IMG/VR virus record: IMGVR_UViG_2913123054_000005
Span: 1 to 37,915 of that record
Length of the DNA: 37,915 bases
Strand: one strand, 5' to 3'
Origin: a virus
Lineage: Duplodnaviria; Heunggongvirae; Uroviricota; Caudoviricetes
Position numbers and translations under genes: made by a program. This document shows, piece after piece, positions 33,223-37,321 of this stretch. A model generated the notes under the pieces. That model saw only the letters and a list, made by a program, of their open reading frames with translations, was not told the origin of the DNA and searched no databases. The stretch's first letter is position 1. Each line of letters starts with the position of its first letter.

Positions 33223-33585
33223 ATGGCTAGCGAACGCAGTACTGATGTGCAGGCATTTATCGGGGAGCTGGACGGCGGCGTATTTGAAACCAAAATCGGC
33301 GCAGTTCTCAGTGAAGTCGCTTCCGGTGTGATGAACACGAAAACCAAATGTAAGGTCTCACTCAACCTGGAAATCGAACCGTTTGATGAGAACCGTGTGA
33401 AAATCAAACACAAACTCTCATATGTTCGCCCGACTAACCGCGGGAAAATTTCCGAAGAAGACACCACCGAAACGCCGATGTATGTCAATCGCGGTGGTCG
33501 CCTGACTATTCTGCAGGAAGACCAAGGACAATTACTGACTCTTGCCGGTGAGCCTGACGGAAAACTCCGCGCAGCAGGTCGTTAA
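33223..33585 (+). CDS. YfdP-like hypothetical protein (120 aa)
   Basis: ATG 33223 with GAGGAG SD; the longer track ORF has an Arg-rich, non-protein-like extension through the GC-rich block. Confidence 0.5.
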   Translation: MASERSTDVQAFIGELDGGVFETKIGAVLSEVASGVMNTKTKCKVSLNLEIEPFDENRVKIKHKLSYVRPTNRGKISEEDTTETPMYVNRGGRLTILQEDQGQLLTLAGEPDGKLRAAGR

Positions 33586-33650
33586 TATCGTTCTTAATAA
33601 ACTGATTATTTATCTCATCACTGAATATCTTTATATAGTGAGGACTTATT

Positions 33651-34475
33651 ATGTCTCAGAACTTAGACGCAACCGCAATTAATCAAATCCATGCCCTCAT
33701 TTCTGCTCAGGGTGTTAATGAAATTATCAGTAAGATTGGTGCCGATGCTGTGGCATTGCCTGAGAATTTCCGCATTCATGATCTGGAAAAATTTAATTTA
33801 AATCGCTTCCGTTTCCGTGGTGCGCTTTCCACTGCCAGCATCGATGACTTTACCCGTTATTCTAAAGATCTTGCAGATGAAGGCACCCGCTGCTTTATCG
33901 ATGCCGATAATATGCGAGCAGTCAGTGTGCTTAACCTGGGTACTATTGATGAACCAGGTCACGCAGATAACACCGCCACTCTCAAACTGAAAAAGACAGC
34001 ACCGTTCTCTGCCCTGTTGTCTGTTAACGGCGAGCGTAACTCCCAGAAGTCACTGGCAGAATGGATTGAAGACTGGGCCGACTACCTTGTGGGCTTTGAT
34101 GCTAATGGTGACGCTATTCAGGCAACAAAAGCGGCTGCGGCGGTCCGTAAAATCACGATTGAAGCAAACCAGACCGCTGATTTTGAAGATAATGACTTCA
34201 GCGGCAAACGCTCCCTGATGGAGTCTGTCGAAGCGAAGACCAAAGATATTATGCCAGTGGCATTTGAATTTAAATGCGTTCCGTTTGAAGGTCTGAAAGA
34301 ACGTCCATTTAAATTACGCCTCAGCATTATCACTGGCGATCGTCCTGTACTGGTTCTGCGCATTATTCAGCTGGAAGCAGTGCAGGAAGAAATGGCTAAC
34401 GAATTTCGTGATCTGCTTGTTGAGAAATTCAAAGACAGCAAAGTAGAAACCTTTATTGGTACTTTCACCGCCTGA
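33651..34475 (+). CDS. yfdQ: YfdQ-like protein (274 aa, DUF2303-like)
   Basis: Length and gene order match the CPS-53 yfdP-yfdQ-yfdR arrangement as recalled from memory; no recognisable catalytic motif. Confidence 0.55.
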
Positions 34476-34603
34476 TTTCATTACTGCAAATGCCCCTGCG
34501 GGGGCATTTATGGAAACGTAATTAACTCAATAATCGCCGGATGGTGAGGGCTTCCTTTTACCCGAATTCAGCGCGGTGCAGCGCATATAACGTGGAGAAC
34601 AAA

Positions 34604-35140
34604 ATGTCATTTATTAAAACTTTTTCCGGGAAGCATTTTTATTATGACAGGATAAATAAAGACAACATCGATATTAACGATATCGCGGTTTCCCTTTCAA
34701 ATATCTGTCGCTTTGCCGGTCATCTTTCACACTTCTACAGCGTCGCCCAACATGCGGTGCTTTGCAGCCAGCTGGTGCCGCAGGAATTTGCTTTTGAAGC
34801 GTTAATGCATGATGCAACAGAAGCGTATTGCCAGGACATCCCCGCGCCACTGAAACGCCTTCTTCCTGACTATAAACGGATGGAAGAAAAAATAGACGCC
34901 GTAATCCGTGAGAAATACGGGTTACCCCCGGTTATGAGTACGCCCGTGAAATATGCCGATCTCATCATGCTGGCAACCGAACGCCGTGATCTCGGGCTTG
35001 ATGATGGCTCTTTCTGGCCTGTACTGGAAGGCATCCCGGCAACAGAGATGTTCAACGTGATTCCACTGGCACCGGGCCATGCCTACGGGATGTTTATGGA
35101 ACGCTTCAACGAGTTATCGGAATTACGCAAATGTGCATAA
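34604..35140 (+). CDS. yfdR: HD-domain phosphohydrolase, YfdR-like (5'-deoxynucleotidase family)
   Basis: 178 aa from ATG 34604 (GGAG SD); H...HD metal-binding motif (HAVLCSQ...LMHDATEAY). Confidence 0.65.
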   Translation: MSFIKTFSGKHFYYDRINKDNIDINDIAVSLSNICRFAGHLSHFYSVAQHAVLCSQLVPQEFAFEALMHDATEAYCQDIPAPLKRLLPDYKRMEEKIDAVIREKYGLPPVMSTPVKYADLIMLATERRDLGLDDGSFWPVLEGIPATEMFNVIPLAPGHAYGMFMERFNELSELRKCA

Positions 35141-36009
35141 CTCATGTAGTTAGTTTTTCTGGCGGGAGAACATCTGCATATCTTGTTCACCTGATGGAAG
35201 AACAAAGAAAGGCTGGCAATAACGTCTGCTACATCTTTATGGATACCGGTTGCGAACATCCGCTGACATACCGCTTTATTCGGGAGGTTGTGAAGTTCTG
35301 GGGCATACCGCTAACTGTGTTGCAGGTCGATATAAATCCAGAGCTTTGGCAGCCAAATGGTTATACGGAATGGGAACCAAAGGATATTCAGACACGAATG
35401 CCGGTGCTTAAACCGTTTATGGACATGGTAAAAAAATATGGCACGCCATACATCGGCGGCGCGTTCTGCACTGACAGATTAAAACTCACCCCCTTCACAA
35501 AATACTGCGATGACCATTTCGGACGAGGGAATTACATCACATGGCTGGGTATTCGTGCAGACGAACCTCGTAGGCTGAAACCGAAATCGGGCGTCCGGTA
35601 TCTTGCCGAGCTATCTGATTTTGATAAGTCGGATGTTATCCGGTGGTGGCATAAACAACCTTTTGATTTGCAAATCCCGGAGCACCTCGGGAACTGTGTT
35701 TTCTGCATCAAAAAGTCCACGCAAAAGCTGGGGCTTGCATGTAAAGACGAACCTGGTCTGATGCGAGTTTTTAATGAGCTGGTTACAGGTAAACACGTCC
35801 GGGATGGTCACCGAAAGACAAATAAAGACGTTATGTACCGTGGTCATCTGAGCCTTGACGGGATTGCCAGAATGTATGCCGACAGCGACTACAGAAATTT
35901 GTATCAGGCGATGGTGCAAGCCAGGCGATTCGATACCGGCTCGTGTTCAGAGTCATGTGAAATCTGGGGTGATCAATTGGAATTGAAATTCGAAGAGGTG
36001 GTGGCATGA
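35131..36009 (+). CDS. PAPS-reductase-like PP-loop ATPase (phage form)
   Basis: 292 aa; PP-loop SGGRTS near the N-terminus (SFSGGRTSAYL); overlaps the yfdR-like stop. Confidence 0.65.
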   Translation: MCITHVVSFSGGRTSAYLVHLMEEQRKAGNNVCYIFMDTGCEHPLTYRFIREVVKFWGIPLTVLQVDINPELWQPNGYTEWEPKDIQTRMPVLKPFMDMVKKYGTPYIGGAFCTDRLKLTPFTKYCDDHFGRGNYITWLGIRADEPRRLKPKSGVRYLAELSDFDKSDVIRWWHKQPFDLQIPEHLGNCVFCIKKSTQKLGLACKDEPGLMRVFNELVTGKHVRDGHRKTNKDVMYRGHLSLDGIARMYADSDYRNLYQAMVQARRFDTGSCSESCEIWGDQLELKFEEVVA

Positions 36010-36209
36010 CAATCGTAAAAACCCATACCGGCATTGTGATCACCAAAGACGGCCCGCAGGTAAAAAAACTTCACCAGACAGAGCGGATGTGGGTCGTCGG
36101 CAAAAACGAGTTTTACCACAAAGAAACCGGACGCCGCCACTTTGCAGAAAATACGCGCCGCCGACTACTGATCGACACCATCAAGCCTATCGAGGTGAAG
36201 CATGTTTAA
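36006..36209 (+). CDS. Small hypothetical protein (67 aa)
   Basis: ATGA overlap with the upstream stop (translational coupling). Confidence 0.45.
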   Translation: MTIVKTHTGIVITKDGPQVKKLHQTERMWVVGKNEFYHKETGRRHFAENTRRRLLIDTIKPIEVKHV

Positions 36210-36441
36210 ACAGAACGAAAAATCTATCGCTCAAATTGCTGAGTATATCCCGCGTGCGTGCCGGGGTATGCAGTTGCAGGAAGCCAAAGCGCGCCTGGAG
36301 AAAAAAATTGCGCTCTATATCGATGACGGCTGTGATGCTGCCGTTCTTAACGCGGCGTTCGCGCCAGCTCTTAACAGTCATACGCGGGAGTCTTTTTTTT
36401 CGCGCATCGCAGCGCAGATCCGTAAAGGAGGCAACCAGTGA
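36202..36441 (+). CDS. Small hypothetical protein (79 aa)
   Basis: 8-nt overlap with the upstream gene. Confidence 0.45.
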   Translation: MFKQNEKSIAQIAEYIPRACRGMQLQEAKARLEKKIALYIDDGCDAAVLNAAFAPALNSHTRESFFSRIAAQIRKGGNQ

Positions 36442-36749
36442 GCAATTATCTGTACTGGTCTGGCTTAGTGGCTAACATTGCGCTCATGTTGTTCGTGGCT
36501 CTTTGCATCTGGGTTTGGTTTATCTGGCCTTTTGTAGAGGCCATGAGCATAACTCGGTGCTTTATTTGCGCATCAAAGACTTCTGGATGCAAACCAACTG
36601 TAAGAGCAATTATCAGAACTTTAAAATACTGGTATCTGGATTTGCTTTTCGGCAGGGGCTGGACGCGAATTAGTAACCGCCAGTTTGAATGGGAAGGCGT
36701 CGGTAACTGGCGAATTCACAGCAGCAAAGAAACGCAGGAGGTGAAGTAA
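36438..36749 (+). CDS. Small membrane protein (103 aa, GTG start)
   Basis: GTGA overlap with the upstream stop; N-terminal TM helix (LVANIALMLFVALCIWVWFIW), Trp/Arg-rich C-terminus. Confidence 0.45.
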   Translation: MSNYLYWSGLVANIALMLFVALCIWVWFIWPFVEAMSITRCFICASKTSGCKPTVRAIIRTLKYWYLDLLFGRGWTRISNRQFEWEGVGNWRIHSSKETQEVK

Positions 36750-37321
36750 TGAACAACTTAATGATCGACCTTGAGACGATGGGGAAAAATAAGGATGCAC
36801 CAATCGTTTCCATTGGCGCGGTGTTCTTCACCCCAGAAACCGGAGACATCGGACAAGAATTCTATACGGTTGTCAGCCTGGAAAGTGCTATGGAACAAGG
36901 GGCCACACCTGACGGCGATACCATCCTGTGGTGGTTGAAACAGAGCCCTGAAGCACGAGCTGCAATCTGTATTGATGATACTTTGTCGATCAGCGATGCA
37001 CTCTCTGAACTGAGCTATTTCATTAATCAGCATGCAGACAATACAAAATATTTAAAAGTCTGGGGTAACGGGGCCACCTTCGACAACGTAATTTTACGTG
37101 GAGCTTATGAGCGAGCAGGACAAATCTGCCCGTGGGCATACTGGAATGACCACGATGTACGCACGATCGTTACGCTTGGGCGTTCCATCGGATTCGACCC
37201 CAAAATGGACATGCCTTTCGATGGCGAACGGCACAACGCCCTGGCTGATGCCCGTCATCAGGCAAAATATGTCTCCGCTATCTGGCAGAAATTAATTCCT
37301 GCCACCAGCACAGAATTATGA
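36749..37321 (+). CDS. DEDDh-type 3'-5' exonuclease (DnaQ-like)
   Basis: 190 aa; Exo I (MIDLETMG) and Exo III (HNALADARH) motifs. Confidence 0.65.
   Translation: MNNLMIDLETMGKNKDAPIVSIGAVFFTPETGDIGQEFYTVVSLESAMEQGATPDGDTILWWLKQSPEARAAICIDDTLSISDALSELSYFINQHADNTKYLKVWGNGATFDNVILRGAYERAGQICPWAYWNDHDVRTIVTLGRSIGFDPKMDMPFDGERHNALADARHQAKYVSAIWQKLIPATSTEL

Follow-up and report, generated by a model that had tools for sequence, protein, structure and literature searches.

The yfdP-yfdQ-yfdR region of a CPS-53-like Escherichia coli prophage: a probable early-left operon built of interchangeable cassettes

The IMG/VR virus record IMGVR_UViG_2913123054_000005, a Caudoviricetes sequence of 37,915 nucleotides (nt) that was analyzed at its full length and is called the window below, is an Escherichia coli prophage of the SfV/mEp460/CPS-53 type and an intact relative of the cryptic K-12 prophage CPS-53/KplE1. 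Close to its right end, positions 33223-37321 hold eight plus-strand open reading frames (ORFs). All eight are present as listed in an earlier, sequence-only reading of this DNA, and each matches a phage protein family. That reading proposed that the eight genes are co-expressed in fixed proportions as one module. We consider it probable instead that the region is the early-left (pL-type) operon of a CPS-53-like prophage, composed of independent, swappable cassettes whose products would fill the separate roles proposed below and would not act as one complex.

The region opens with yfdP (33223-33585; 120 aa), the constant partner of yfdQ, and with yfdQ itself (33651-34475; 274 aa), which encodes a DUF2303 protein. 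These are followed by yfdR (34604-35140; 178 aa, or 199 aa if translation were to begin at an in-frame ATG upstream, at 34541) and by a gene for a NinC-like PP-loop protein (35131-36009; 292 aa). Three small genes come next, orf67 (36006-36209; 67 aa, basic), orf79 (36202-36441; 79 aa) and orf103 (36438-36749; a small protein with one N-terminal transmembrane helix), and then the gene of a DEDDh exonuclease (36749-37321; 190 aa). The domain calls of that reading, namely an HD protein, a PAPS-reductase-like PP-loop protein with SGGRTS at residues 10-15, one membrane protein and a DEDDh exonuclease, were all borne out.

Overlapping stops and starts had been described along the string. Five of the seven junctions do overlap, by 10, 4, 8, 4 and 1 nt from yfdR through the exonuclease gene, but the two junctions within yfdP-yfdQ-yfdR are gaps of at least 65 nt (65 nt between yfdP and yfdQ; 65 nt, or 128 nt to the K-12 start, between yfdQ and yfdR). 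The second gap holds a GC-rich hairpin that we read from the sequence (GCCCC-TGC-GGGGGC, then ATTT; 34492-34509, plus strand). It falls below the T-run rule of the terminator scan; transcripts could be attenuated or processed at this point within the conserved core. A good ribosome-binding site precedes most of the starts, and GGAGG precedes the GTG start of orf103. According to the ORF coordinates, overlaps of 1, 4 or more nt are also seen at most other same-strand junctions of the prophage. Furthermore, the 10-nt overlap at the yfdR stop is retained in K-12, 720R4 and mEp460 with a different gene (DUF551) next in line. Consequently, the overlaps speak for compact phage packing and are not evidence of a stoichiometric complex.

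The distribution of the genes establishes which parts of the region belong together. Every member has a RefSeq annotation, parts of the region were recovered by Megablast in 165 phage records, and of 5426 complete E. coli genomes, 3142 carry at least some part of it and 33 the full arrangement. Co-occurrence was scored with the window proteins around YfdQ in two sets of 80 loci, one drawn from different species and the other from E. coli prophages; the species-level set includes loci of Marinobacter, Hahella and Photobacterium in which YfdQ is only 41-46% identical. The yfdP gene lies directly upstream of yfdQ in 79 of the 80 species-level loci, as it does in the window and in Xanthomonas phage CP2, and it is upstream of yfdQ in all 80 E. 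coli loci. Counts for yfdR were 58 and 77, and those for the exonuclease 25 and 16, in the species-level and E. coli sets, respectively. The remaining genes are rarer: the NinC-like gene was found in 0 and 7 loci, orf67 in 2 and 14 (with or without NinC), orf79 in 0 and 10, and orf103 in 0 and 4.

Sister phages reveal the same pattern at the level of gene borders. The resemblance to phage 720R4 is lost at 35137 and returns at 36015, exactly at the edges of the PP-loop gene, and in sister phages and K-12 this slot is taken by a DUF551/YfdS-like gene. In the Shiga toxin (Stx) phage Ss-VASD, a yfdP-yfdQ-yfdR-NinC-orf67-orf79 block lies downstream of a RecT-like recombinase and an exonuclease. Co-occurrence and exact border swaps together define yfdP-yfdQ, usually with yfdR, as the conserved unit and the other genes as interchangeable cassettes. 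The proposed stoichiometric co-expression of all eight genes as one module does not survive this comparison, given that only yfdP-yfdQ(-yfdR) travel together.

Among known systems, CPS-53/KplE1 of K-12 (yfdP-yfdQ-yfdR-yfdS-yfdT-torI) has the same order and spacing of yfdP, yfdQ and yfdR, with 97.5-99.3% protein identity, and it shares with the window the overlap at the yfdR stop and an excisionase at the operon end. The K-12 genes yfdM, yfdN and yfdO, on the opposite strand, are remnants of the Dam, PerC-like and O genes of the window, whereas NinC, orf67, orf79, orf103 and the DexA-like exonuclease of the window replace yfdS (DUF551), yfdT and ypdJ of K-12. The early-left operons of SfV, SfIV, mEp460, vB_EcoM-720R4 and LLS/ST64B are 96-98% identical in DNA over yfdP-yfdR and over orf67-exonuclease-xis, and these phages are, as is the window, without a Rec module and strongly enriched in Chi sites (PMC12315714). 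The positions taken by NinC and orf103 in the window are occupied in these phages by a DUF551/EaE-like gene and in some cases also by Ea22-like genes.

YfdP is 97.5% identical to the CPS-53 protein of K-12, and YfdQ is 99.3% identical to K-12 YfdQ. The latter, which the sequence-only reading had left as a 274-aa protein without a recognized fold, was confirmed by Pfam as DUF2303 (PF10065; E 2e-92, 309.7 bits against a cut-off of 26.6, residues 7-272 of 274), and it has no known fold relatives. Structural models of YfdQ and YfdP had no fold similarity to Rad52, Red-beta, RecT, Erf-type or other DNA-binding folds in a fold library of entries released up to 2026-04-08, among which PDB 9o7m is not included. 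That recently deposited entry ('YfdQ Protein'), with 36 chains, is a distant YfdQ homologue (~40% identity) whose sequence was traced to ORF37 of Xanthomonas phage CP2/MET23-P3; full-text literature searches found no publication for it. YfdQ and YfdP are both acidic, with isoelectric points (pI) of 5.0 and 5.9. The PADLOC defense models gave no match for YfdP, YfdQ, YfdR or the small proteins, and Pfam searches at E values up to 1 returned only noise for YfdP, orf67, orf79 and orf103. Overproduction of the K-12 YfdQ protein provoked plaque formation by a resident phage, and yfdQ deletion mutants are weakly sensitive to methyl methanesulfonate (MMS; cited in PMC4776307).

DNA-metabolism genes are consistent neighbors of the yfdP-yfdQ pair. 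In distant loci, yfdQ is directly followed by a gene for single-stranded DNA-binding protein (SSB; loci L148, L157 and L163) or by a DEDDh exonuclease gene (L107, L123 and L162). In Xanthomonas phage CP2 (L167), yfdP-yfdQ is followed by genes for a 511-aa protein, Erf, an exonuclease, an endonuclease and SSB.

YfdR is 97.8% identical to K-12 YfdR, named 5'-deoxynucleotidase in RefSeq, and matches phrog_318 (E 1.9e-111) and PDB 2gz4 (E 1e-13). The HD motif can be read from the sequence as H40, H43 and H50, then H69-D70 (ALMHDATE). The protein scores under the family cut-offs of both Pfam YfbR-like (24.0 against 25.9 bits) and NCBIfam PRK03826 (19.6 against 122), and as judged by sequence comparison it is a YfdR orthologue, not a YfbR equivalog. 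The connection between YfdR and DnaA, which the sequence-only reading had mentioned, is correct: K-12 YfdR binds domain I of DnaA through Phe46, and the contacts of DnaA with DiaA and with DnaB become weaker in its presence (Noguchi and Katayama 2016, PMC4776307). Multicopy yfdQ and yfdR, together with yfdS or yfdT, inhibited initiation at oriC in K-12, and a deoxynucleoside monophosphate (dNMP) phosphatase activity of K-12 YfdR is reported in the same study and in works cited there (PMC4776307). By analogy with K-12, YfdQ and YfdR of the window most likely interfere with DnaA-dependent initiation of host replication.

The PP-loop protein is 78% identical to lambda NinC over 290 aa, shares its PP-loop and cysteine motifs and is, by this full-length similarity, the NinC orthologue. 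In lambda, ninC has ninB and ninD as neighbors and is part of the early-right nin region; the window gene is early-left, between yfdR and orf67. Invariant positions in 24 homologues are the S10-G11-G12-R13-x-S15 PP-loop, C113, C126, C189-x2-C192 and C272-x3-C276. The Pfam PAPS_reduct match is limited to residues 5-70 (profile positions 2-64 of 175), and PAPS/APS reductases are the sole solved sequence relatives in the Protein Data Bank (PDB), with a profile match that extends over positions 3-99 only. In CysH, the C-terminal catalytic cysteine belongs to an ECGLH motif; the NinC-like sequence has no ECG motif, and its C-terminus carries CSESCE. The partial PAPS match, the true PP-loop and the missing CysH C-terminal motif make a role in sulfur assimilation unlikely. 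NinC homologues elsewhere have NinG and Q as neighbors when they lie in nin regions, or an MT-A70 methylase when they lie in early-left operons; the nin regions of lambda, O276, L171 and L172 carry them without an HD gene. The HD and PP-loop proteins had been paired in the sequence-only reading; the pairing fails on co-occurrence, with the two genes together in none of the species-level loci and in 7 of the 80 E. coli loci.

Comparisons with defense and counter-defense proteins point in a different direction. The best defense-family match of the NinC-like protein is PADLOC SspD (E 3.8e-16; residues 5-152, profile positions 2-125 of 277), and it matches DndC at an E value of about 1e-3. None of the Dnd/Ssp partner genes (cysteine desulfurase, DndB/D/E, SspB/C) was found among the operon genes with Pfam, PHROG or PADLOC. 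The protein is 55% identical (E 5e-109, residues 3-282) to the PAPS domain of p0018 from Vibrio phage 44E38.1, with all motifs kept. Transfer of p0018, a PAPS-Dam fusion, and its neighbor p0019 let phage overcome host Dnd (Piel et al., 10.1101/2021.05.05.442762). The window has a Dam-type DNA adenine methyltransferase of its own (28110-28796, minus strand; Pfam Dam E 2.5e-45), a separate gene in the early-right operon that is not fused to a PAPS domain. In phrog_33262, the family of PAPS-Dam fusions, the NinC-like protein matches positions 2-279 and the window Dam positions 283-492; this Dam is also 31% identical (E 3e-14) to the C-terminal half of P0219. Since the NinC-like protein and Dam correspond to the two halves of phrog_33262, gene fusion hints at a shared DNA-directed process. 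In the Vibrio phage, Dam is fused to PAPS and adjoined by p0019, while the window has its Dam in another operon and is without a p0019 homologue; anti-Dnd protection was shown only for the Vibrio cassette. On these comparisons, the most likely role of the NinC-like protein would be an ATP-dependent, DNA-directed counter-defense activity against phosphorothioate-based (Dnd-type) restriction.

The exonuclease belongs to the Pfam Rv2179c-like family (PF16473, E 5e-75) and has a complete set of catalytic residues (D7/E9, D112 and H162-x4-D167). It shares the DEDDh residues with T4 DexA (PDB 8kel), to which it is 28% identical (E 5e-15) over the first 141 residues, and it keeps S80 and D83, the equivalents of the DexA tetramer residues S87 and D90. 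It differs from DexA in length (190 against 227 aa) and in coming from a temperate phage without known 5-hydroxymethylcytosine DNA. EcD, an E. coli DexA homologue, protects against T4 (PMC12153337). The window exonuclease, considered as this published anti-T4 protein, is probably not the same variant: the D90 equivalent, kept here, is described as absent from EcD. The three small proteins matched only PHROGs of unknown function. They are orf67 (phrog_1226, E 1e-42; pI 10.3), orf79 (phrog_1344, E 2e-52) and orf103 (phrog_2531, E 4e-27), the last with a hydrophobic stretch at residues 11-29 (Kyte-Doolittle 2.5).

The sequence-only reading was right that the region has no recognizable recombinase or Gam: the Bet, RecT, Erf, Sak, Sak4 and Gam/Abc2 families were not found by Pfam or PHROG in the operon or in the scanned early-right/nin-region and lysis ORFs. 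At the same time, Chi (GCTGGTGG) occurs 20 times in the window, where 1.6 occurrences are expected from shuffled sequences, and 18 of the sites are on the minus strand (examples lie within 22902-24448 and 26028-31131 and at 37302-37309). A class of Chi-rich lambdoid phages without a Rec module has been described, in a study that names this yfdP/yfdQ/yfbR-like cluster, finds it also in phages with full Rec modules and judges it unlikely to encode recombination proteins (PMC12315714). The co-occurrence and fold results given above agree with this view of the cluster, and the lack of Bet, RecT, Erf and Gam would be explained by membership in this Chi-rich class, which relies on host RecBCD.

The wider prophage provides the setting of the operon. 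At the left end of the window, the host gene dusA (1-1038, minus strand) is followed by a tyrosine integrase gene (1127-2224). The prophage appears largely intact, with lysis genes and further large minus-strand ORFs (the ORF annotation is partial), and its early-right/nin region contains RusA, an HNH/DUF968 protein, Dam and Q. The replication module contains only an O-like initiator (29254-30246, minus strand) and then a PerC-like activator (28763-29257, minus strand). No P, DnaC or DnaB-type helicase loader was seen in this module, and the same has been noted for phage LLS; a replication module without a loader makes a DnaA/DnaB-directed role for YfdR attractive.

A Cro-like gene (31213-31413, minus strand) and a cI-like S24 repressor gene (31511-32137, plus strand) precede the operon. 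A promoter scan revealed a candidate pL-type promoter (TTGCCA-17-TAGATT; 32194-32222, plus strand) just 3' of the repressor gene. This candidate overlaps the AAACTAAGT motif, which recurs in the cro/cI intergenic region (9-mers shared with 31405-31520), and it is plausible from this arrangement that it represents the pL operator/promoter equivalent for the yfdP operon. The stretch of about 1 kb between the repressor and yfdP (32223-33150) holds overlapping ORFs on both strands, each with its own PHROG: 32326-32622 (plus strand; phrog_3195), 32540-32785 (minus strand; phrog_3311) and 32926-33150 (minus strand; phrog_3651).

Downstream of the exonuclease gene, the last gene of the operon encodes a PrtN/TorI-type excisionase (37331-37618, plus strand; Pfam PyocinActivator E 4e-24; phrog_1300, excisionase) in the position that torI holds in CPS-53. 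A YafO-like toxin gene (37667-37915, minus strand) follows xis. Up to the right edge of the window, no further phage gene was seen after xis, and the integrase lies at the left end beside dusA, as in KplE1. An integrase at one end and an excisionase at the other, as in KplE1, would place attP between xis and int in the excised phage. No exact direct repeat of at least 10 bp was found as an att site between the ends of the window, and the right end of the prophage therefore probably lies beyond it.

What the comparisons demonstrate is the identity of the genes, their mosaic arrangement, their co-occurrence and the Chi enrichment; the biochemical roles in the window phage, all of which we infer under the early-left operon reading, are as follows. 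The conserved core yfdP-yfdQ-yfdR would act on host replication, with YfdR docking on DnaA domain I and, together with YfdQ, damping initiation at the host oriC; YfdR may in addition be a weak dNMP phosphatase. The NinC-like gene has landed in the slot of the DUF551/YfdS-like gene, and its product is probably an enzyme that uses ATP to adenylate a substrate and has DNA as its target; in this way, and possibly in concert with the phage Dam, it would help the phage to escape phosphorothioate-dependent (Dnd/Ssp-type) restriction. The genes orf67, orf79 and orf103, the last for the membrane protein, would be accessory, the DexA-like DEDDh exonuclease would trim DNA 3' ends, and Xis ends the operon. 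The phage would rely on host RecBCD in place of a recombinase and Gam of its own. Host takeover or anti-defense, as had been suggested for the region, is a fair description of parts of it, but not of eight genes as one module.

Several observations weigh against these assignments. In K-12, initiation was inhibited only in multicopy and only if yfdS or yfdT was also present, and deletion had no phenotype (PMC4776307). Homologues of yfdS and yfdT were not found in the window, and it is for this reason that a role in inhibiting initiation is one we infer for the window by transfer from K-12. The pL-type promoter at 32194-32222 is a consensus match only. The resemblance of the NinC-like protein to SspD and DndC is confined to its N-terminal PP-loop domain, and no p0019 homologue was found in the window (best tblastn E 2.4), though the anti-Dnd effect in Vibrio was mapped to the two-gene cassette. 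We know of no reported phenotype for lambda NinC and, to our knowledge, nothing has been established about YfdP.

Other explanations of the region must be set against the operon of cassettes. The neighbors of the pair could suggest that YfdP, YfdQ and the 3'-5' exonuclease form an unrecognized recombination module, with a new annealing or mediator protein, in place of Bet/Exo/Gam. An SSB or DEDDh exonuclease gene comes directly after yfdQ in distant loci, the CP2 pair lies just upstream of Erf, exonuclease and SSB, and yfdQ deletion mutants have their weak MMS sensitivity (cited in PMC4776307). The 36-chain assembly of 9o7m, whose example chain is labeled C, may also contain other molecules, possibly nucleic acid, as chains A and B. 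However, the pair coexists with full recombination modules (RecT-like and exonuclease in Ss-VASD, Erf in CP2, and ArgO145; PMC12315714), the predicted models of YfdQ and YfdP lack similarity to annealase-like or DNA-binding folds, both proteins are acidic, and a Chi enrichment as strong and as oriented as this one speaks for reliance on RecBCD. We regard such a module as improbable. Smaller still is the chance that the eight genes form one translationally coupled unit with products acting in fixed stoichiometry. Its appeal lies in the five consecutive overlaps of 1-10 nt and the good ribosome-binding sites, but both junctions inside the sole conserved block are gaps, it is the variable genes (found in 4-16 of the 80 sister loci) that overlap, cassettes swap exactly at the overlaps, and overlapping junctions are the rule across the whole prophage. 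We hold this to be very unlikely.

It is equally hard to credit that the HD phosphohydrolase and the PP-loop enzyme constitute a two-enzyme pathway for nucleotides or DNA modification. Their genes are adjacent with a 10-nt overlap, and Stx phages and 33 complete E. coli genomes share this arrangement, yet NinC follows yfdR in none of the 80 species-level loci and in 7 of the 80 from E. coli, NinC homologues do without an HD gene in the nin regions named above, and yfdR has the same overlap with DUF551 in K-12, 720R4 and mEp460. The PP-loop gene taken as a CysH-type PAPS reductase, an auxiliary metabolic gene boosting host sulfur assimilation, would agree with its Pfam PAPS_reduct and PHROG annotations and with PAPS/APS reductases as its only solved sequence relatives. 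But the match is limited to the N-terminal 70-100 residues, the SGGRTS PP-loop is a true one, CSESCE stands at the C-terminus instead of ECGLH, and relatives of NinC are fused to Dam or lie beside DNA methyltransferases, which leaves this idea the slightest of chances. Finally, parts of the operon could defend the lysogen against superinfection, for example by having the DexA-like exonuclease degrade modified T-even DNA (the HREX idea), given that EcD, which protects against T4 (PMC12153337), and the window exonuclease are both DexA homologues. The gene nevertheless lies in a repressor-controlled early lytic operon and, to judge by this position, should be silent in the lysogen, and it keeps S80 and D83, whereas EcD, known by description, is without a D90 equivalent. 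We consider this defense role quite unlikely.

More speculative than the operon reading, and in our opinion doubtful, is a broader proposal in which YfdP-YfdQ is a self-contained early module that extends from enterobacterial prophages to phages of Vibrio, Marinobacter and Xanthomonas. YfdQ would here be a large homo-oligomer of novel fold that, with YfdR-like add-ons, captures DnaA or the host replication machinery, and NinC and Dam would be a split modification system that defeats phosphorothioate-sensing restriction.

Under the early-left operon reading that we prefer, every part of the region has already been seen and annotated, and the window holds no new kind of system; the open points, YfdP-YfdQ and the function of NinC, are old questions on known genes. 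These questions nevertheless concern a region of which some part is found in more than half of the complete E. coli genomes, including K-12, and in Shiga-toxin phages, and YfdP, YfdQ and lambda NinC are genes without proven function in the best-studied bacterium and phage. The analysis narrows the unit for study from an eight-gene string to the YfdP-YfdQ pair with an optional YfdR, and it presents NinC as a candidate DNA-directed counter-defense enzyme that should be viewed alongside the phage Dam.

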